From the NCBI RefSeq assembly GCF_000026545.1, contig NC_011601.1: 64,000 bases of DNA; one strand, 5' to 3'. Made by a program: the position numbers and the translations under genes. Below are positions 24,019-60,507 of the stretch, one piece after another (the first letter of the stretch is position 1; the number at the start of each line of letters is the position of its first letter). Under the pieces are notes generated by a model. That model saw only the letters and a list, made by a program, of their open reading frames with translations, ran no database searches and was not told the origin of the DNA. The stretch comes from Escherichia coli O127:H6 str. E2348/69 (GTDB taxonomy: Bacteria; Pseudomonadota; Gammaproteobacteria; Enterobacterales; Enterobacteriaceae).

Positions 24019-25312
24019 TTGTTTTAACCTCATGACAGATTTAAGGATGAACAAATCCCTGCCATTGCTGGCATATAAGAATGAAACCGGATATTTATTA
24101 CGGAACTGTTTTAAAGACCTGCCGGGATTTCGATATTATCCTGGTGAATAACTTTATCGACCGGGTAACAGTTACCGGGAATTTTCTGTTCGGTTGCTGC
24201 AGTCATACACTACTGCATTGTCCTGTGAACACTGACTGCAATATCAACTGGCTCTCCGGAAACAAGAAAAACTGTCAGAACAAGCACAAATGCTGAATTC
24301 ATTGTGCACATCCTTTTGGCATCAGACGTAAACGAGCCAGCATTGAAACAATGCATATTTTATTTAATAGCTCCCGTTCTTGTTTTCTCTTGTTAATGGC
24401 ATCTTCAGTAAATACTGGGTTACTGATAGTGACACCAATTTCAAAACAACCTTCAGACGTATTAACGTTTGGTAATAACGTTTTCATTATCGCGTCCTCA
24501 ACAATGAATTTTGTGATGCAGTGCCTGGTGCCTCCAGGTGACGTTAACCAGTTAACAATTAACGCCGGATACAGAGAATCCACCCATAACACTGTTTTTG
24601 GTTTTAACTGTTCCGCGTGCGCTCAGCCGCATTCACCACATCACAAAATTCACTTTAAAAAGGGCGGCAGAGCAGTCACGGAGTAAAACTGATACCGCCA
24701 AACGTCACCAGAAAATTGATAACAGAGGGCGTTGCAGCGGGGTTGTCACTTAAGCGTATGGTCAACCTGACAACCCGGTGTCCTCAACGGGGGAAGGAAT
24801 AACCCCGCCATACTTACCGCCGCGCCATTTCGCGGATTGCCACAACCGGAAGCGCACGGTCGACGAAAATTTAACGACAGGCTATCTATGAACCAGCTAC
24901 CTCGCCGTGCGCTTTCGCGTTATGGTCTGACTTTTCAGGGAAATATCCTTTCAGTAAACTGTCAGTGCCGGATGCTCACCCGTGTCCGGCGCACGCACTC
25001 CACCTCATCCGTGGAGAACTCCTTAATTACCAACCTTAGCTTCGTTGGTTAGCTATTAACGCGGGTATGTAATCATTCTGGCAATGCTTAATGTCGCTGC
25101 TTTTTCCAGATTAGTGATATCCTGCTCCAGAGCGGACAGATTTTCAGCCTGCTTAGCCCTGGCTTCATTGGCCCATTTCAGATCCTGCGCTGCATTAATT
25201 TTCTGGCGCATCCACTCATAAAGTTCATCATCGGTATAGTCTGGCGCGATGATGACGGGTTCTCGTTTCTGCATACTGATTCCTCGCGGTGCTGTTTCGC
25301 TTATCAGCCGTT

Positions 25313-31121: not shown

Positions 31122-32495
31122 ATGAAAAGACTATATTATACCCATCATGATAGTCGAACCTTAAAACTTGCTATAGAAGGTGATGTTTCTGATAATGCGA
31201 ATATTTTTACAGTAATTGTAGGTAAAAATGGCGTTGGAAAAAGCAGATTGTTATCTCAGATTGCTAAAGACTGTATTCAAGATATTCATTTCTTGAAAAC
31301 TTTTAATCCATTATTTGACAGAGAAATAACACCAAAGTTAATTGCCGTATCTACCAGCCCATTCGATAAATTCCCTCCAGGGCGTAGGTCATTAAATCAC
31401 CAAAGGAAAGAAAATAATTATCGCTATGTGGGTATGCGTGGAGAAGGCCCCTTCGGCGTATCAAATGCCGTATCCCTTTTATCTTCAGCAGCGAGAGGTT
31501 GGCTAGAGAAACTTGCTTATTCAGAAAATCCTGCAAATTTACTCGATGTTTTTCATTCTATTGATTTTGAGCCCCATATAGAGTTTGTATTTAAACCAAC
31601 TTACAACGGACCGGACACTCCTGACTATAACTTCATTGGTGTATATTCAGATGAGATATTAACGGAAGTTAAGGAGTTATATTTAAAATACAATATAAAA
31701 ATTGACAGGAAGAATATTGAGAGTCTCTTAAAGTTAAACTCCGAATCACGTCATGATATTTACGAAGCACTGGTTGAAATTAATCGATTTGAACCTGAAC
31801 GTAGGGCTGTAACCTTGTCAGTCGATTTTACCAATGGTGAAACATTGGTTGGCTCGACTTATGCGAATAATTATTTTTCTAGATCAATTCTTAAACTTAT
31901 GAACGCTGGCTTCATGAGATTGATGGATATGCGACTCATAAAAAAAAGCTATGGTCCCATGTCACTTAAACGTGCGAGCTCGGGAGAACAATGTTTATTA
32001 GTGATGTTGCTTGGAATTGCAGGGCATATAACTGATGGTTCTATAATACTAATTGATGAACCGGAAATAAGCTTGCATCCTCGATGGCAGGAAGAGTTTA
32101 TCATTATGTTAACAAAAGCATTTTTAACTTACTCAGGTTGTCAATTCATAATTGCAACTCATTCACCACAAATAATATCCAATTTGCCGAATAAAGGTTG
32201 TTATATAACATCTTTGTCGAAAAGTTATCTTTATAAAGCAAAATACTTTAGCAACCGGTCTGCAGACTATCAACTTGCGGAACTATTTGATGCCCCTGGC
32301 ATTATGAATGAATACATTGCCAGATTAGCTTTCAATTTACTTTCAAAAGTTAAGACTGCTAAGTTAGTAACAGATGATAATTGGCGTGAATTAAAACAAC
32401 TCCAGCTTCTCCTTGAAAACGTTAATAGTAATGACCCTATTAATGAACTCGTAAATTCCGTATCTCAGGTGTGTGAAATTTATGCCAAAAATTAA
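31122..32495 (+). CDS. ABC/AAA_21-type ATPase, Septu PtuA-like
   Basis: Walker A VIVGKNGVGKSRLL; Walker B + D-loop IILIDEPEISLHP; H-loop IIATHSPQII; 457 aa; overlaps downstream HNH gene. Confidence 0.75.
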   Translation: MKRLYYTHHDSRTLKLAIEGDVSDNANIFTVIVGKNGVGKSRLLSQIAKDCIQDIHFLKTFNPLFDREITPKLIAVSTSPFDKFPPGRRSLNHQRKENNYRYVGMRGEGPFGVSNAVSLLSSAARGWLEKLAYSENPANLLDVFHSIDFEPHIEFVFKPTYNGPDTPDYNFIGVYSDEILTEVKELYLKYNIKIDRKNIESLLKLNSESRHDIYEALVEINRFEPERRAVTLSVDFTNGETLVGSTYANNYFSRSILKLMNAGFMRLMDMRLIKKSYGPMSLKRASSGEQCLLVMLLGIAGHITDGSIILIDEPEISLHPRWQEEFIIMLTKAFLTYSGCQFIIATHSPQIISNLPNKGCYITSLSKSYLYKAKYFSNRSADYQLAELFDAPGIMNEYIARLAFNLLSKVKTAKLVTDDNWRELKQLQLLLENVNSNDPINELVNSVSQVCEIYAKN

Positions 32496-33117
32496 AAATC
32501 CAATTAGATTCAGCGCAGAGTCATTAGATATTATTGAGAAAAAATTGTCTTCTCCAGATTTTAAGCATACCAACTGGGGAGATGATGATTTGCAAGTTCT
32601 CCGTGCAGAAATTAGAAATCATTACAGAGAAGAACAAAAGCTAGAATGTGTATATTGTCATGAGCCTATTGGGGTAAGAGCTGCACAAGCTGCTCCTATA
32701 GAGCATATTGTGCCAAAATCTCAATATCTATGTTTTATTTTTGAACCTAAGAATCTATGTGTAGTATGTCCTGACTGCAATGAATTCAAAGGTAAAAATG
32801 AAGTGTTATTTGAACCCGTAATAAATGGGGGGCGGCGCAAAAACTATCCAACTGCATCTGCATCATTTCGCATCGTTCATCCACATATAGATGATTATGA
32901 GATGCATATTATAAAAGCAAATCGTGTTTATGTGGACAAAACACCTAAAGGGCACTATACCATTGGAATATGTAAACTAAATAGATTTTTTCATTATTTT
33001 GGGATGTGTGATGAATTTGTTAATGATGCAAAAATTGCTGAGGCAAATGAAAATTTTTTCAAAAAAGGTAGTATTACTACTAATGAATTATTGGATGATG
33101 ACATTCATTTGATTTAA
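32473..33117 (+). CDS. HNH endonuclease, Septu PtuB-like
   Basis: HNH/zinc motif CVYCHEP...IEHIVPKS...CVVCPDCNEFKGKN; 214 aa; start overlaps ATPase gene end by 23 nt. Confidence 0.75.
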   Translation: MKFMPKIKNPIRFSAESLDIIEKKLSSPDFKHTNWGDDDLQVLRAEIRNHYREEQKLECVYCHEPIGVRAAQAAPIEHIVPKSQYLCFIFEPKNLCVVCPDCNEFKGKNEVLFEPVINGGRRKNYPTASASFRIVHPHIDDYEMHIIKANRVYVDKTPKGHYTIGICKLNRFFHYFGMCDEFVNDAKIAEANENFFKKGSITTNELLDDDIHLI

Positions 33118-33371
33118 CTATGAATTATTATATTGTAAAGTAATCAGGTAAGATATGTTAGACAGTGAGACTATTGCCTTACAGAATTCATTATTCTTAT
33201 GGATCGCCTTTCTGACTGATTTCATATTGGCGGGGTAACGGGAGTTAAGTAGAATGGCTGCGGGTGCTTGAGGCTATCTGTCTCAGGCATGAACACCAAA
33301 GGCAGATAGAGAAAAGCCCCAGTTAACATTACGCGTCCTGCAAGACGCTTAACATTAATCTGAGGCCAATT

Positions 33372-34460
33372 TCATGCTAGACACATGTAGGTTAGCCTCT
33401 TACGTGCCGGAAGGCAAGGAGATGTATGGGTCCACCACATATTGCAATTTTTATTCTCTTTTAAAATATATTCCACGGGCGTCATTAGTGCGAGCGCCTT
33501 GTGGGGTCTTTTGCTGTTATACAGCACCAGATATTCCGCCAGCTTCTGGTTAAATAGCGCCAGATCTTCAAAGAGTAAAATCTCATTAAATTCAATAAAC
33601 TGCTCTCTTAACGTCCGGTTAAAACGTTCACAGATAGCGTTCATTTTTGGCGTGTAGGGATAGGTCCAGAGGTGTTTGATAGCGGCTTCCTGCAGCGTTT
33701 TGTCGAAGTTTCCCAGGAACTCTTTTCCGTTATCTGTGATTATCTGGCTGATACCGACCGGGAACAACCGGGCTGCGCGGCTGAAGAAGTGATTGACGAT
33801 ATCACTGTTGAGTGACGGCACAGCCAGCGCCAGCGCGTAATTGCTGCATTCGTCGATCATGGTGATGACATAGCGACGCAGTTCGCCCATTCTGAGCTCA
33901 ATGGCGTCCATCCCAATGAGCTCACCTGTCTTTACCGGGCGGTAGTGCTTTGGCCTGCGGGGTTTGGCAGACCGCTTTTTGACAAGCAGTGCCTTCCCCC
34001 GCGATCCCAGACGCACAGGTATCATCCGCATTTTATCATGTGCGGCAGCGATCATTCTGCCGATGGTGGAAACACTCGGACAGGCCAGATAGCGCTGTTC
34101 GCACCAGGGCTTCAGGCGAACAAAAATCTGCTCTTTACCGAGGTTCGGCAGCTCTGTCCTGAGGCGTCGAATCTCTTTCAGCACATCGGGATGCCAGTGT
34201 TTTTTTCGTCGCACCAGAGGTGCCTTACTGTGCGGGATTAGCCCCTCAGGTCCTTCCTTGTTCAGTAACTGACGCCACCAGTAAAGCGTGCGGCAGGACA
34301 CGCCAAAGGCTTCAGAAGCTGCAGAAATACCGTGTTTATCCCAGAAGTGCAGAGCCTTCATTCTCATTGTTGCTATATCAGCCATCACTGAAAGCCTCAA
34401 CGCATAATCGGCCGTTTGGTAGTACTTAGGATAGCCAACCATCAGATGCTGCATTTGCAT
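33372..34460 (-). CDS. IS481-family DDE transposase (integrase-core/rve domain)
   Basis: 362 aa; N-terminal HTH (...CRTLYWWRQ...), DDE core, C-terminal ...YNSKRPHKALALMTPVEY typical of rve transposases. Confidence 0.7.
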   Translation of the reverse strand: MQMQHLMVGYPKYYQTADYALRLSVMADIATMRMKALHFWDKHGISAASEAFGVSCRTLYWWRQLLNKEGPEGLIPHSKAPLVRRKKHWHPDVLKEIRRLRTELPNLGKEQIFVRLKPWCEQRYLACPSVSTIGRMIAAAHDKMRMIPVRLGSRGKALLVKKRSAKPRRPKHYRPVKTGELIGMDAIELRMGELRRYVITMIDECSNYALALAVPSLNSDIVNHFFSRAARLFPVGISQIITDNGKEFLGNFDKTLQEAAIKHLWTYPYTPKMNAICERFNRTLREQFIEFNEILLFEDLALFNQKLAEYLVLYNSKRPHKALALMTPVEYILKENKNCNMWWTHTSPCLPARKRLTYMCLA

Positions 34461-36926: not shown

Positions 36927-37477
36927 TCGTAAATATGATATATCCGGAAATTACAGGCAAAAGCGGCGAGCATTTACGTCTAAAAACGCTGGAAGCCGTC
37001 TGGATCCAGGGGAAATTACGGATGTGGGGGCGTTGGTCGTATATAGGTGGTGGCAAACCAGGAAATATGTTCAATCAGTTGCTGGCATCCAAAAAACTGA
37101 CAAAAACCGCGGTCAATGAAGCCCTGCGTAGAATCAGGGAGTCAGGGATTGATAAACCAGAGCTGGAAGCATTCTTGCGAGAGATGATCGCTGGCAGACA
37201 GAAGAGCTGGTTGTCTCACTGTACTGATGCAGAGGCGTTACGCATTGATGGGGTGATAAGTAAAGCGCTTGCACGTTATCCTGGATTGATTGATATCCTG
37301 CGGCAAAGGTACGAAGGGCGGGGGATGAGTAAACGCAAAATGGCTGAATTGTTGAATGAGGTTCACCCTGAGTGGTGCTATGCAACATGCCGCAATCGTA
37401 TAGATATGTGGCTGAGAATAGCTGAGTTTATTCTGTATCCACTGATGCGAGATGCATTTTCTTTTACTGACGCTTAG
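36923..37477 (+). CDS. Putative late-gene antiterminator (Q-like)
   Basis: 184-aa ORF overlapping the rusA stop, last gene before a strong terminator, as for Q/pR'/tR'; family assignment from position plus loose similarity. Confidence 0.5.
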   Translation: MIVNMIYPEITGKSGEHLRLKTLEAVWIQGKLRMWGRWSYIGGGKPGNMFNQLLASKKLTKTAVNEALRRIRESGIDKPELEAFLREMIAGRQKSWLSHCTDAEALRIDGVISKALARYPGLIDILRQRYEGRGMSKRKMAELLNEVHPEWCYATCRNRIDMWLRIAEFILYPLMRDAFSFTDA

Positions 37478-39237: not shown

Positions 39238-39313
39238 GGCCCTTTAGCTCAGTGGTGAGAGCGAGCGACTCATAATCGCCAGGTCGCTGGTTCAAATCCA
39301 GCAAGGGCCACCA
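39238..39313 (+). tRNA. ileZ: tRNA with CAU anticodon, Ile2-like (ileZ-type of lambdoid phages)
   Basis: Hand-folded cloverleaf: acceptor GGCCCTT/AAGGGCC, D-arm GCTC..GAGC, anticodon loop CTCATAA, T-arm GCTGG TTCAAAT CCAGC, CCA end; resembles E. coli tRNA-Ile2 as recalled. Confidence 0.85.
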
Positions 39314-39410: not shown

Positions 39411-39487
39411 GCGTTGTTAGCTCAGCCGGACAGAGCAATTGCCTTCTAAGCAATCGGTCACTGGTTCGAATCCAGTACAACGCGCCA
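39411..39487 (+). tRNA. argO: tRNA-Arg (anticodon UCU)
   Basis: Cloverleaf: acceptor GCGTTGT/ACAACGC, anticodon stem ATTGC/GCAAT with loop CTTCTAA, T-arm ACTGG TTCGAAT CCAGT, CCA end. Confidence 0.9.
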
Positions 39488-39951: not shown

Positions 39952-40979
39952 ATACATATCTGGATTATCACCTGTTACGGTAAAAAGTGATTGCTTACTG
40001 TTTTTGTGAATGGCATTGCAGCAGCCGGATAATGTCAGTGCTGGCTGACTGTGTACTGGTGGCGGGTGTGGTGGTTGTTGCTTTCCCGTTGCTGAAAAAG
40101 AAAACGCCAGACTGTTAGCCGGAGAAATTTTTAAATACTTCACAATTCAGGCGGTTGACTGTTGTCTGGTTTGCGGGGAGTTTGTTAAAAGAAACTGGCA
40201 TGGTGAATCCACCTGTGCGGAGGGGCAATCAGCGAGTAGGTATATGGGATAATCGCGGATTCAGGTGCTGGTACTGAATTCACCGGGAGGCACCCGGCAC
40301 CATGCAATGGCACATAGCGCCACTCTCCAGCCCCTCTCCGGAGGGGCTGTTTATATTGATTTTGTCAGATGTGAGTAAACTCCTTATGGACTTTGTTGTT
40401 TTAGTCCATAAGGACATATTTGCAGAGTGCAACGGTTATTAAAGCATTCATTCAATACGTTATCTGTATTTGTAGGGCATTCCTGGCTGTTTTTGATTAA
40501 ATTCCAGAATGTTTTATTGAATGGTACTACGTTGTAAATGGTTACAGGTAGCACTTTGTTATTGAGCATGATACCTGTGTGAGTCAGTGTAAATATACTT
40601 TCAGGAGGTAAGAAAGCATCCGATTGATACCAGATTATTAATTTTATTTTACTCCATATGACTGAAAAAGATATTCCGCATGATGGCTGGATAACTGTAT
40701 CAATCACAATCCACTTCATTTAGTTTCCTTGTTTATGCCTTGCTGGTGATGTTCTGAAAAGTATAAATGATATTTTTGATTGTAAACCATAGAGCAGAAT
40801 TATTTTTCTGATGTTGTTTATTGTTTATTTAAATGCAGGGTGGTTTATATCTCGTCTTGTAGTTTATCCATGCATATCTGCTTGATGATGAGGTTTTTAT
40901 TTAAGGTATGGTTTTGTGTTTTTTCTGTATTACATGTCAGGTATTTTAAAGAATTATTTTTCAGATGGTGGAAAGAACC

Positions 40980-42830
40980 ATGGCATTTAAACACTATGAT
41001 GTTGTCAGGGCGGCGTCGCCGTCAGATCTTGCGGAAAAGCTGACACATAAACTGAAAGAGGGCTGGCAGCCGTTTGGTAGTCCGGTGGCCATAACCCCTT
41101 ATACCCTGATGCAGGCGATTGCAGCAGAAGGTGATGTGGTCGTCAGTGGTGCAACTGAGCCAGAGTGGTACTACGTCATCGTACTGGCCGGGCAATCCAA
41201 TGCCATGGCTTACGGTGAAGGGCTTCCGCTTCCGGATTCATACGATGCGCCCCATCCGCGCATTAAGCAACTGGCCCGTCGTAACACAGTGACTCCCGGT
41301 GGTGAAGTATGCGTATTTAACGACATCATTCCTGCTGACCATTGTCTGCATGATGTTCAGGATATGAGTACGATTAACCATCCCCGGGCTGACCTGAGCA
41401 AAGGGCAGTACGGCTGTGTCGGACAGGGCTTACATATTGCCAAAAAACTGCTTCCGTATATCCCTAATAATGCGGGGATCCTGCTGGTACCATGCTGTCG
41501 TGGTGGTTCGGCATTCACCCAGGGCACGGAGGGGACATTCAGCGAGTCCACGGGGGCCAGTCAGGATTCGGCTCGCTGGGGAGTGGGTAAGCCGTTATAT
41601 CAGGATCTGCTTTTCCGCACGAAGGCAGCATTGCAGAAAAACCCGAAAAACGTTTTGCTGGCGATATGCTGGATGCAGGGGGAATTCGATATGACGAATG
41701 CCAGTTACGCCCAGCAGCCAGCAGCATTTCTTGCAATGGTACAGCAGTTCCGTGCTGACTTTGCCGGGCTGGCGGCGCAGTGTCACGGTGGAAGTCCGGC
41801 ATCAGTCCCCTGGATTTGTGGCGACACGACATACGCGTGGAAACAAGAACACGGTACGCAATATGAAGTGGTATATGGTGCATATAAAGGTAAAGAATCC
41901 CAGCAGATTTATTTTGTTCCCTTTATGACCGATGGTAGCGGAGTTAATACACCGACAAACAACCCGTCAGAAGATCCTGATATTGCCGGGTCTGGTTATT
42001 ACGGTTCGGCATCCCGAACGAACAAAAACTGGGTATCATCAAATCGCCCGACGCATTTCAGCTCATGGGCGCGTCGTGGCATTATTCCCGATCGTATGGC
42101 AACTGCTATTCTGAACGTAGCCGGTCGCACCTTAGCCTTCATTAGTGGTAAGGCACCGGAAATCAAACCCTCGCCCGGCGGCGACACGCCATCGGGGCCG
42201 TCTGAAGATGCATCCGTACGCACAATCTCCCTGTTGCCGACAGCCGGAGATGCTGCTGCGCAGGGCTGGAGCATTAAGAATGGCGGAATTCAGTTGTCAG
42301 ATGGTGTATTTAAGATCACCAAGCAGAGCAATAAAACCTGGTCCCTGATGCATCCGGTGGATGACGCAATTACCCTGCTGACACAGGGCGGCAGACTGAC
42401 CTGTAAGTTCCGCCTCTCAGGCGCACTGACCAACAATCAGTTCGGGCTGGGGATTTATCTGTATACGGACGCTCCCGTTCCTGATGATGTGGCGATGACG
42501 GGTACTGGTAATCCGTTCCTGATGTCTTACTTCACTCAGACCACTGACGGCAGAGTGAATCTGATGCATCACAGGAAAGCCGGAAACACGAAGCTGGGGG
42601 AGTTCGGCGATTACGGTAACGACTGGCAGACGCTGGAGCTGGTGTTCACCGCCGGCAGTGCCACGGTTACTCCGAAACTGAATGGAGTGGCTGGCCCGGC
42701 ATTCCAGGTTATAAAAGACAGTCTGACACTGGGACTGAATGCGCTGACGCTGACGGATGTTACAAAAAATGCAGCGTATGGCGTTGAGATAGAAAGTCTG
42801 GTGCTGGAGATAAATGCACCGGCAGCATAA
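40980..42830 (+). CDS. NanS-p-type sialate O-acetylesterase (DUF1737 + SASA domains)
   Basis: N-terminus MAFKHYDVVRAASPSDLAEKLTHKLKEGWQPFGSP and GQSNAMAY esterase motif match the Stx-phage nanS-p/yjhS-like protein family as recalled. Confidence 0.85.
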   Translation: MAFKHYDVVRAASPSDLAEKLTHKLKEGWQPFGSPVAITPYTLMQAIAAEGDVVVSGATEPEWYYVIVLAGQSNAMAYGEGLPLPDSYDAPHPRIKQLARRNTVTPGGEVCVFNDIIPADHCLHDVQDMSTINHPRADLSKGQYGCVGQGLHIAKKLLPYIPNNAGILLVPCCRGGSAFTQGTEGTFSESTGASQDSARWGVGKPLYQDLLFRTKAALQKNPKNVLLAICWMQGEFDMTNASYAQQPAAFLAMVQQFRADFAGLAAQCHGGSPASVPWICGDTTYAWKQEHGTQYEVVYGAYKGKESQQIYFVPFMTDGSGVNTPTNNPSEDPDIAGSGYYGSASRTNKNWVSSNRPTHFSSWARRGIIPDRMATAILNVAGRTLAFISGKAPEIKPSPGGDTPSGPSEDASVRTISLLPTAGDAAAQGWSIKNGGIQLSDGVFKITKQSNKTWSLMHPVDDAITLLTQGGRLTCKFRLSGALTNNQFGLGIYLYTDAPVPDDVAMTGTGNPFLMSYFTQTTDGRVNLMHHRKAGNTKLGEFGDYGNDWQTLELVFTAGSATVTPKLNGVAGPAFQVIKDSLTLGLNALTLTDVTKNAAYGVEIESLVLEINAPAA

Positions 42831-43042
42831 TAAAAAAAGCCAGCGCCCACTCTGAAGGACGCTGGCTAAAACGGGTAGATGTACTTCACATGATACTTAT
42901 ACTTGGCAGTACATTTTCTGACAGACAGTGACGGATGTTGTCAAGATATTGTGTCATTTATAACCTGAATCAGGGGTTGGCCGGAATGTTATCTGGCATT
43001 TTTAGCAGAGCCTGAATGCCATAATCACGGCTCCCGGCGTTG

Positions 43043-43073
43043 GCCGTCAGTGGGTGACACTGGCGGCTTTTTT
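43043..43073 (+). terminator. Rho-independent terminator
   Basis: gccgtcagtg...cactggcggc stem followed by T6. Confidence 0.6.
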
Positions 43074-43085
43074 GTGCACAGAAAA

Positions 43086-44663
43086 CCCCCAGCTAGGCTC
43101 TGTCTCTTATACACAAATCCCCACCCGGGGATTTGTGATGTCTGTCAGTCTGCTTTAGGGGGACTCTTTCCATCCGGTAGTTTCCTTCCTCCCCGGCAGC
43201 GATTTTTTGAACTTTTTCCTCACCCGTTGATCTTCTCTTATATTTCATTTTCTTCGGGTCTGTTATGGTACTTTCTGATTGTTATTCATGGGCTAACGAG
43301 CAGTTTGGACATGCCCGTCTCGGTGATCCGCGTCGTACACGACGCCTTGTGTCACTGGCCTCTTCTCTCGCTCAGCATGCAGGTCTTTCTATTGTGAAAT
43401 CATCCCAGTCCACTGCTCAGGTTGAAGGTGCGTACCGCCTGATACGTAACCCGTCTGTGTCCCCGCAAGCCATTGCCGAAGCCGGATTTACCGCCACTGT
43501 AAGGGCATGTGAGGCTCATCCGCTGCTCCTCGCGCTGGAAGACACCACCACCATTAACTTCAGTCACAGTACGGCATCTGATGACCTGGGGAATACCACC
43601 ACTAACCCGAAGACGCGCGGGCTGCTGGCTCACTCTGTCCTGATGTACGCCCCCGACAGCGCCCTGCCAGTCGGTCTTATCGAACAGCAGCGCTGGAGTC
43701 GTGCCACGGACACCTACGGTGTTAAGCACCAGCGAAAAGAACGTCCCTATGAAGAAAAAGAAAGTTACCGCTGGCAGCAGGCTTCGGAGCGCATGGCCGA
43801 ACGGCTGGGGGAGATACAGAAACGGGTAATCACTGTCTGTGACCGGGAAGCGGATATCTGGCATTACCTGCATTATAAAGTCAGCCACGGGCAGCGCTTC
43901 GTGGTGCGTGCAGCACAGAATCGCCGGCTGGAAGAAGCACCCGGCAAGCTCTTCGAACTGCCGGAAGTCCTGGCAACCGCGGGAAGCCACACGCTGAATG
44001 TGATGCAAAAAGGCGGGCGGGCAGCCCGCCAGGCCCGGATGTTCATCAGTTACAGCGAAGTCAGCATAAAAAATCCCGACAACAGCGGCCAGGCGCTCCC
44101 GCTCACGTATGTCTGTTGCCGGGAGCAGGCAGAGGACGGCGCCTGCTGGCATCTGCTGACGTCAGAAAAAGTGGCGAGTGCCGCCGATGCGCGACGTATC
44201 GTCAGCCATTACGAGCGACGCTGGCTGATAGAGGAATACCACAAGGCGTGGAAAAGTGGTGGTACATGTGTGGAATCGCTGCGAATGCAGACCCGGGATA
44301 ACCTCGAGCGCATGGTGGTTATCAAGGCGTTTATCGCGGTGCGGGTGCTGGGCCTGCGGCAGGGCGGTATCAGTGAAGAAACACAAAATGACAGCTGTGA
44401 GAAAATACTGACGCCGACAGAGTGGAAACTGCTGTGGGTTAAGCTGGAAGGAAAACCGCTTCCGTCACAGATGCCGACACTGAAATGGGCCTGTCTGAAA
44501 CTGGCGAAACTGGGGCGATGGCATGACAGCAAACGCACCGGTCGCCCCGGTTGGGTAGTCATGTGGGATGGCTGGTTCAGACTTCAGGATATGGTTGAGG
44601 GTTACCTGGTGATGAAGTCTCTTGATCAGGAGATCTGATCAAGAGACAGAGCTAGGCTGGGGG
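43086..44663 (+). mobile_element. IS4-family (IS50-like) insertion sequence
   Basis: Imperfect terminal inverted repeats CCCCCAGCTAGGCTCTGTCTCTT (43086) and revcomp of aagagacagagctaggctggggg (44639-44663), containing the CTGTCTCTT motif of IS50 ends; Tn5-Tnp-like transposase inside. Confidence 0.8.
43265..44638 (+). CDS. IS50-like DDE transposase
   Basis: 457 aa, colinear with Tn5 transposase as recalled (LGDPRRTRRLV..., ...YERRWLIEEYHKAWKSG..., ...NLERMV...). Confidence 0.85.
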   Translation: MVLSDCYSWANEQFGHARLGDPRRTRRLVSLASSLAQHAGLSIVKSSQSTAQVEGAYRLIRNPSVSPQAIAEAGFTATVRACEAHPLLLALEDTTTINFSHSTASDDLGNTTTNPKTRGLLAHSVLMYAPDSALPVGLIEQQRWSRATDTYGVKHQRKERPYEEKESYRWQQASERMAERLGEIQKRVITVCDREADIWHYLHYKVSHGQRFVVRAAQNRRLEEAPGKLFELPEVLATAGSHTLNVMQKGGRAARQARMFISYSEVSIKNPDNSGQALPLTYVCCREQAEDGACWHLLTSEKVASAADARRIVSHYERRWLIEEYHKAWKSGGTCVESLRMQTRDNLERMVVIKAFIAVRVLGLRQGGISEETQNDSCEKILTPTEWKLLWVKLEGKPLPSQMPTLKWACLKLAKLGRWHDSKRTGRPGWVVMWDGWFRLQDMVEGYLVMKSLDQEI

Positions 44664-59952: not shown

Positions 59953-60507
59953 CGGACCATAACAATTTATAATCTGCTGGCCGGAACTAATGAATTTATT
60001 GGTGAAGGTGACGCATATATTCCGCCTCATACAGGTCTGCCAGCAAACAGTACCGATATTGCACCACCAGATATTCCTGCTGGCTTTGTGGCTGTTTTCA
60101 ACAGTGATGAGGCATCGTGGCATCTCGTTGAAGACCATCGGGGTAAAACGGTTTATGACGTAGCGTCAGGGGACGAGTTATTTATTTCTGAACTCGGTCC
60201 GTTACCGGAAAATGTTACCTGGTTATCGCCGGAAGGGGAGTTTCAGAAGTGGAACGGCACAGCCTGGGTGAAAGATGCAGAAGCAGAAAAACTGTTCCGG
60301 ATCCGGGAGGCGGAAGAAACAAAAAACAACCTGATGCAGGTAGCCAGTGAGCATATTGCGCCACTTCAGGATGCGGTAGATCTGGAAATCGCAACGGAGG
60401 AAGAAAACTCGTTGCTGGAAGCCTGGAAGAAGTATCGGGTGTTGCTGAACCGTGTTGATACATCAACTGCACCTGATATTGAGTGGCCGACTTCACCTGC
60501 AGAGTAA
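59953..60507 (+). pseudogene. tfa: Tail fibre assembly protein (tfa) lacking its first codons and start
   Basis: [87 protein letters not shown]... colinear with lambda Tfa from about residue 10; homology ends abruptly at the IS2 remnant. Confidence 0.8.

Follow-up and report, generated by a model that had tools for sequence, protein, structure and literature searches.

A predicted NanS-p-family sialate O-acetylesterase gene in the late region of the degraded prophage PP5 of Escherichia coli E2348/69

The closest described systems to the gene considered here are the chromosomal sialate O-acetylesterase NanS and its prophage-encoded homologues, the NanS-p proteins. In NanS (structure 3PT5) the conserved blocks read GQSNA (holding Ser19), RGGSAF, MQGEFD and R-x-SHFS (holding His301); there is no catalytic Asp, the acid role being taken by a main-chain oxygen, and block V is R-S-S-H (PMC10792757). 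Published activity exists for NanS-p alleles of EDL933 (seven assayed) and O104:H4 (five assayed), as summarised in a review (PMC8065619), and a survey noted long nanS copies in enteropathogenic (EPEC), enteroaggregative (EAEC) and extraintestinal pathogenic (ExPEC) E. coli as well as in commensals, with the entry 'O127:H6 E2348/69: 1 short, 3 long, 0 stx' for the strain studied here (Vimr 2013; PMC3658417). In this work we analyse one of these copies, E2348C_1246, within a 64,000-nucleotide stretch of the chromosome of this stx-negative EPEC O127:H6 strain (NC_011601 1,248,001-1,312,000; hereafter the window, whose numbering is used unless another is named). The gene lies in the late region of PP5, a degraded lambdoid prophage between potC and potB at roughly 20,130-60,700, and we put at about 85% the probability that it encodes a NanS-p-family sialate O-acetylesterase, a prediction that comes from comparison of sequences.

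As a discovery the gene is of little value, since the family, its enzymology, the genomic slot and the existence of the E2348/69 copy are all published; the RefSeq annotation is correct and the copy was catalogued in 2013. The value of the analysis lies rather in the corrections that it brings (i.e., no catalytic Asp, no marker of enterohaemorrhagic E. coli (EHEC) and a divergent allele), and in the links that it draws to recent work on capsid decoration and on the Pas small RNAs (sRNAs).

The gene, its domains and its catalytic residues

A + strand open reading frame (ORF) spans 40965..42830 and gives 621 amino acids (aa) if counted from its first ATG. The ATG at 40980, which gives 616 aa and a stop, is the start chosen both by RefSeq (WP_000874298.1, 'SASA family carbohydrate esterase') and by the original annotation of the strain, where E2348C_1246 occupies 1288980..1290830 of NC_011601 (annotation file in the supplements of PMC8550237). 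A GGTGGA motif stands 7 nt 5′ of this ATG, and nothing like it precedes the ATG at 40965. An earlier interpretation of this DNA (hereafter the sequence-only reading) had described a 616-aa protein at 40980-42830, and ORF, RefSeq start and original annotation all bear it out. It had also assigned to the protein a DUF1737 N-terminus and an SGNH/SASA esterase region, both of which are recovered by a domain search (DUF1737, PF08410, 57 bits against a cut-off of 24; SASA, PF03629, aa 66-261, E=4e-12), together with a third domain, DUF6645 (PF20350, aa 467-577), all three exceeding the Pfam gathering score. PHROG_143 aligns with the protein end to end, and a PDB sequence search matches NanS/YjhS (3PT5) over 321 residues and, at aa 421-613, 6YP6, the C-terminal domain of NanS-p. 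As sequence matches go, those to Pfam and PDB far exceed chance (Table 1). An NCBIfam profile search gave no match for this protein. Nor was a hydrophobic, signal-like segment found at its N-terminus (maximum KD(12) = 0.28), for which reason it is expected to be cytoplasmic unless cells lyse.

The NanS-type SGNH blocks are all four preserved, the first three without any difference from NanS: block I GQSNA (aa 71-75), holding the nucleophile Ser73 (codon 41196-41198), block II RGGSAF (aa 174-179), block III MQGEFD (aa 232-237) and block V RPTHFS (aa 356-361), with the base His359 (codon 42054-42056). A classical DxxH test finds no Asp three residues before the catalytic His, block V being R-P-T-H. 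This absence is expected, as the NanS/NanS-p family is not defined by DxxH. The sequence-only reading would have given up the esterase on loss of the Ser-His-Asp residues, a rule that was mis-specified: Ser73 and His359 are present, and since NanS has no catalytic Asp, the rule would wrongly 'refute' NanS itself. Its naming of the gene as a NanS-p-type sialate O-acetylesterase, on the other hand, is in agreement with the architecture, the NanS/NanS-p homology, the intact Ser and His and the location.

The ratio of non-synonymous to synonymous substitution rates (dN/dS; Nei-Gojobori), computed against one relative at 99% and two at 88% nucleotide identity, comes to 0.20 for the whole gene, 0.14-0.15 for the esterase domain, about 0.15 for the DUF1737 N-terminus (few sites) and 0.34-0.39 for the linker and C-terminal region; with a value of about 0.2, the esterase gene is seen to be under purifying selection. 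In published RNA sequencing (RNA-seq) of uninduced EPEC the baseMean of E2348C_1246 is 46.7, against 102 for E2348C_0688, the copy in prophage PP2 of the same strain, and 11.7 for the iraM-like E2348C_1245.

The family is far from confined to EHEC. By megablast, 2233 of 5426 complete E. coli genomes (41%) have the gene, 1391 of them with a match covering at least 80% of its length, and positive genomes carry it in a median of two places and a maximum of 14; in the protein database the three-domain architecture occurs throughout Escherichia, including E. albertii. Given this spread over 41% of complete genomes, many of them without stx, the gene is not a marker of EHEC phages, and the sequence-only reading overstated the case in taking it as the mark of a relative of Stx/EHEC-type phages. 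What stands of that claim is the resemblance of the late region, and only of the late region, to Stx phages; the packaging genes of PP5 are lambda-type and its immunity region is of the Qin/DicA-DicC type.

Proposed function and the alternatives

In the mechanism that we propose, Ser73 of GQSNA would act as the nucleophile and His359 of RPTHFS as the base, with no Asp, in a NanS-like active site. By analogy with characterised homologues, the enzyme would remove the 9-O-acetyl group from neuraminic acid acetylated at N-5 and O-9 (Neu5,9Ac2), either free or on mucin O-glycans, and the resulting N-acetylneuraminic acid (Neu5Ac) would be catabolised by the nan pathway of the host. The C-terminal lectin-like domain probably directs the enzyme to glycans. 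Lacking a signal peptide, the enzyme would act inside the cell or after lysis, and its basal transcription in the lysogen is low, going by the published RNA-seq. DUF1737 would, by homology, be a capsid-docking module, a role orphaned in PP5 because the capsid genes are gone from this prophage.

Several points weigh against such a function. Identity to the assayed 933W enzyme is only 70% for the esterase domain and 34% for the C-terminal one, and one of the four proposed sugar-binding aromatics is replaced by Leu (Y510, Y515, Y540 and F611 of the phi24B C-terminal domain correspond to F488, Y493, F518 and L584 here). The protein also carries the RPTH variant of block V, which is flagged as atypical and reported, among Stx2a phages, only for the Stx2 phage 86, other alleles having RSSH or RASH (PMC10462455); by comparison with these, its substitutions are conservative. 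The allele in the window is a divergent, unassayed variant whose activity is predicted. No promoter-like site was found on the + strand in the 260-bp gap 5′ of the gene. Finally, the growth benefit of this copy alone may be nil, because the strain has the chromosomal nanS and two other long copies (PMC3658417 and the annotation file in PMC8550237); the sequence-only reading had called the gene a potential fitness factor, which is plausible in itself and redundant in this strain.

A different role is brought up by a 2026 preprint on phi24B (proteomics and cryo-electron microscopy (cryo-EM)), in which gp84, a member of the NanS-p family, is a capsid decoration protein: its DUF1737 hexamers sit on the central hexons of the T=9 capsid, anchored by Tyr42, and its esterase and lectin parts are apparently released by cleavage close to SSP motifs. 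This capsid-docking evidence for DUF1737 was left out of the sequence-only reading. Following the preprint, the protein of the window could be primarily a virion component, with DUF1737 docking on hexons as in gp84, the esterase and lectin parts being displayed at the phage surface to bind mucus or penetrate it, and any benefit to the lysogen being secondary; in PP5 it would be either an orphan or a decoration of the capsids of other resident prophages. Its N-terminus has the DUF1737 fold by Pfam, is 60% identical to the 933W/phi24B N-terminal domain and is under purifying selection (at the dN/dS of few sites given above). Against this, the loop with Tyr42 seems to be missing, as this residue falls in a 3-residue gap of the window protein (TAGYGAEF versus TP---YTLM; Y41 adjoins the gap and may or may not be equivalent, judging by the letters alone), and the SSP motifs of the linker are missing as well: the tripeptide is absent from the entire protein, whose short N-terminal linker reads EGDVVVSGATEPEW. 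Head modules were classified by local tblastn at 13 loci, a small sample that is not phylogenetically independent and of which two loci are uninformative (L012, a recombinant whose head genes are deleted, and the 109-kb element L014, in whose examined stretch no head genes could be recognised). The 933W-type N-terminus accompanies 933W-type heads in 933W and Stx2_EH1965, and phage 86 is a Traversvirus by taxonomy, whilst the window-type N-terminus (84-100% identity) accompanies three head modules, namely lambda-type, a distant lambda-like type and Pankowvirus-type. DUF1737 type and head module thus show only a coarse split, between 933W-type short-tailed and long-tailed phages, with SASA and C-terminal types shuffling independently (e.g., in phage 86). 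As a pattern in sequence types, this split fits a link to the virion, even though the pairing of one N-terminal type, at about 95% identity, with three unrelated heads speaks against a specific co-adaptation with a single capsid protein. A 933W-type head marker was looked for in the window without success; the terminase and portal of PP5 are lambda-type and there is no capsid gene, so capsid decoration cannot operate in cis in this prophage. Capsid decoration is therefore best seen as a second role that the family may plausibly have, extended to the window variant only by homology, and we are doubtful that it is the primary one.

The condition of PP5 itself invites another explanation, i.e., that the esterase gene is a decaying relic without function, kept by chance in a dead prophage. 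The prophage is heavily degraded (with pseudogenes, a head deletion, four insertion sequence (IS) elements and lysis genes shifted by 2.5 kb of IS DNA) and the strain has redundant nanS-type copies. This nevertheless seems very improbable to us, as the 616-codon ORF is intact with every catalytic block present, the gene is transcribed and has a dN/dS of about 0.2, and the 90% cluster to which the protein belongs is very common, its representative P0003 standing for 3161 member sequences. We give equally little credit to the idea that the natural substrate is not host sialic acid, and that the enzyme instead acts on O-acetyl groups of bacterial surface polysaccharides (O-antigen or capsule) and so aids phage adsorption. 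The review of the family treats this as an open possibility (PMC8065619), and no part of the protein varies more than the C-terminal lectin domain (dN/dS about 0.39, and 34% identity between types), as would be expected if this domain were tracking variable glycans. All assayed members of the family, however, deacetylate Neu5,9Ac2 and mucin glycans (PMC8065619), and the esterase domain here is 66-70% identical to NanS and to 933W NanS-p, with blocks I-III identical.

Pas small RNAs and the prophage neighbourhood

Five prophage sRNAs have been validated in E2348/69, among them the Hfq-dependent PasC (Pearl Mizrahi et al. 2021). PP5 encodes PasC on the opposite strand, in the interval from E2348C_1246 to E2348C_1247 (NC_011601 1290909->1290832; Table S6, PMC8550237), with its 3′ end 2 nt from the stop codon of the esterase gene. 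Its Northern probe has an exact match at 42860-42884, and its terminator hairpin (42838-42867, - strand), followed by a U-run, was found independently by a terminator scan; the 79-nt RNA folds into an 11-bp GC-rich hairpin with a U-run (fold z = -2.96). Sequencing of Hfq-associated RNA pairs (RIL-seq) gave 668 chimeras between PasA, the paralogue in PP2, and + strand RNA of window 42785-42960 (PMC8550237), where the target site is matched at 42788-42818 and the published target motif at 42798-42808. The published PasA fragment is identical to PasC at 23 of 26 positions, and the duplex of PasA with the 3′ untranslated region (3′UTR) of the esterase mRNA reaches -42.9 kcal/mol, a strength attained by none of 500 shuffled targets. 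Read-through of the esterase transcript across pasC explains the PasA chimeras. It is tempting to go further and speculate that this 3′UTR, perfectly antisense to PasC and complementary over much of its extent to PasA, acts as an Hfq-associated sponge or co-degradation partner for sRNAs of the PasA/PasC family, or is regulated by them. The pairing and the chimeras are documented, whilst the regulatory consequence is hypothetical and we hold it only tentatively; if true, it would link late transcription in one prophage with the sRNA network of a second, a form of RNA crosstalk between prophages.

The arrangement esterase - pasA/pasC - holin - lysozyme is described as conserved in a 2026 preprint (Zhu, Shabalina and Storz), according to which PasD is a structural homologue of STnc100 and sRNAs of the PasD/STnc100 type lie upstream of esterase genes. 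The STnc100 match of PP5 as PasD2 and a hairpin at 43042-43068 as PasA were both ruled out, the PasA and PasD probes being absent from the window and Table S6 placing PasA and PasD2 in PP2. The transposase-interrupted arrangement of about 4,881 bp in the same preprint was likewise ruled out as the present locus, where the sRNA is PasC.

Along the + strand of PP5 the order is DUF1133/Q antiterminator, DNA methyltransferase, tRNA-Ile2, tRNA-Arg, STnc100 sRNA, an iraM-like gene (- strand), esterase, PasC (- strand), ISEc13, IS200C and holin/lysozyme/Rz (Table 1). That the gene has a Q-type antiterminator on one side and the S/R/Rz lysis genes on the other agrees with the late operon in which the sequence-only reading had placed it. 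This is the layout of 933W (Q, tRNAs, stx, nanS-p, S) without the stx, and synteny of the late region is shared with 933W, phage 86, YYZ-2008 and FDAARGOS_1290. The segment 40352-40978, i.e., the iraM-like region, has no counterpart in the closest relative (L004). In FDAARGOS_1290, the closest uninterrupted relative (98.8% nucleotide identity), the holin follows about 150 bp past the esterase; in PP5 window 42845-45390, with both IS elements, stands in place of a 143-bp spacer, and homology resumes at 45391. As the left end of IS200 overlaps the right repeat of ISEc13, one element went in at the other's edge. Past both IS elements and their transposases, the first genes, E2348C_1249, E2348C_1250 and E2348C_1251, are almost silent in the published RNA-seq (baseMean 3.0, 8.4 and 0.9).

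Table 1. Features of the esterase locus in PP5 (window coordinates)
Feature	Position	Strand	Basis
nanS-p-type esterase gene E2348C_1246 / WP_000874298.1 (predicted function)	40980..42830	+	ORF, RefSeq, original annotation, Pfam, PHROG_143, PDB matches
DUF1737 N-terminal domain, aa 3-50, 'TPYTLMQ' loop variant	40986..41129	+	Pfam PF08410 E=1.7e-15; alignment to 933W/phi24B type
SASA/SGNH esterase domain, aa 59-379	41154..42116	+	3PT5 alignment E=1.7e-121; motif positions
C-terminal lectin-like domain, aa 421-616 (DUF6645)	42240..42827	+	PF20350 E=4.3e-17; 6YP6 E=6.9e-29
Esterase mRNA 3′ end (last codons) and 3′UTR antisense to pasC	42785..42960	+	RIL-seq table, PMC8550237
PasC sRNA gene, convergent on esterase	42832..42909	-	Table S6, PMC8550237; probe match; terminator scan; fold z=-2.96
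Q-type antiterminator candidate (DUF1133 / Phage_antitermQ)	36935..37477	+	PF06576 E=1.7e-101; PF06530 E=2.4e-6
STnc100-family sRNA, ending in terminator-like hairpin 40328-40349	40169..40358	+	Rfam RF02076, 123.6 bits vs gathering score 47
iraM-like anti-adaptor gene, in the stx slot of Stx phages	40384..40719	-	NCBIfam NF007393 E=4.7e-48; 933W synteny
ISEc13 (IS4 family), transposase 43265-44638	43084..44665	+	25-nt inverted repeats 43084-43108, 44641-44665; NCBIfam IS4 E=2.6e-154; RefSeq name
IS200C, STnc490 5′UTR RNA 44643-44766, tnpA 44776-45234; right end approximate	44643..45350	+	Rfam RF01405; NCBIfam IS200 E=6.7e-43
Lysis cassette: P21-type holin, lysozyme RrrD, Rz	45394..46531	+	Pfam PF04971, PF00959, PF03245; RefSeq

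Elsewhere in PP5, ydfD, a DUF1627 gene and a recombinase gene are pseudogenes. The head block is deleted at window 52789-53237 (L001 31810-32258), where the portal gives way to an S49 prohead protease, truncated and fused to a likewise truncated NlpC/P60 tail-tip fragment, and then to tail genes; the prophage lacks the genes for scaffold, decoration and major capsid proteins and most of those for the tail shaft, and no lambda-type major capsid or decoration gene was found in it. With this block gone, PP5 cannot make particles.

The phage tRNA genes lie on the + strand at 39238-39313 and 39411-39487. ARAGORN calls the first tRNA-Met (CAT), its homologue being tRNA-Ile2 (ileZ) in the RefSeq and 933W annotations; PP5 has a single tRNA-Arg (TCT), against two in 933W and FDAARGOS_1290, and its tRNA genes are spaced wider. 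The prophage also holds a Septu defence pair (31122-33117, +), made of the AAA ATPase PtuA (PADLOC E=1.9e-165) and the HNH nuclease PtuB (E=1.1e-83), and the low G+C of this segment (0.38-0.40) suggests a separately acquired cassette. Rfam further places DicF antisense RNA at 24662-24713 (-), within the Qin-like dicB/dicC/ydfABCD immunity region, sok antitoxin RNA at 33262-33428 (+), beside hokD, and IS009 at 60269-60467 (+), near the right end of the prophage.

Comparison with known NanS and NanS-p proteins

The NanS-p proteins of 933W (L0105 / z1466) and phi24B (vb_24B_21, i.e., gp84), both with D1/CTR1 domain types, share with the window protein the order DUF1737, SASA and lectin-like C-terminus, the SGNH blocks I-III and the catalytic His, and their genes occupy an equal genomic slot, with the Q/tRNA/stx region on one side and the holin on the other. 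Identity of L0105 to the window protein is about 52% overall, falling from 70% in the esterase and 60% in the N-terminus to 34% in the C-terminus and 28% in the linker. The 933W/phi24B proteins have RASH in block V where the window protein has RPTH; compared to them, its DUF1737 loop is 3 residues shorter, apparently without a position for Tyr42, and its linker about 14 residues shorter, without SISSP. The phages differ as well, PP5 being long-tailed and lambda-type and 933W a Traversvirus podovirus.

The closest relatives in the phage database are orf3 of the Stx2 phage 86 (87.6% protein identity) and the alleles of Stx1a phages (e.g., YYZ-2008) and of JLK-2012 (88-89%). With the window protein, orf3 has in common the RPTH block V, a linker that is 100% identical and a C-terminus of the same type (88%), its N-terminus being of the 933W type, whereas YYZ-2008 shares the N-terminal (95%) and C-terminal (97%) types. 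The family is a mosaic: phage 86 joins an N-terminus of the 933W type to esterase, linker and C-terminus of the window type, and several Stx1a/Stx2c phages combine a window-type N-terminus with a 933W-type C-terminus. In phage 86, YYZ-2008 and JLK-2012 stx stands directly upstream of nanS-p, the slot that in PP5 is taken by the iraM-like gene on the opposite strand. A divergent homologue of 637 aa (43% identity in the N-terminus and 60% in the esterase) is found outside any lambdoid late region, at 20001-21914 of L014 (phage CMS-2020a, CP054387), a 109-kb circular, phage-plasmid-like element on which it lies beside an integrase and cobaltochelatase/porphyrin-type genes.

Chromosomal NanS (YjhS, 3PT5) has GQSNA, RGGSAF, MQGEFD and the catalytic His, and no Asp, just like the window protein, from which it differs in being a single domain, without DUF1737 or the C-terminal lectin domain, encoded in the NanR-regulated nanCMS operon. 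In the same strain, the PP2 copy E2348C_0688 has equal length (1851 nt) and the same layout of esterase, convergent sRNA and holin, and is also a RIL-seq partner of PasA; in PP2, PasD2 lies upstream of it and PasA downstream, with the holin directly next, whilst E2348C_1246 in PP5 is preceded by STnc100 and iraM and followed by PasC and the two IS elements.

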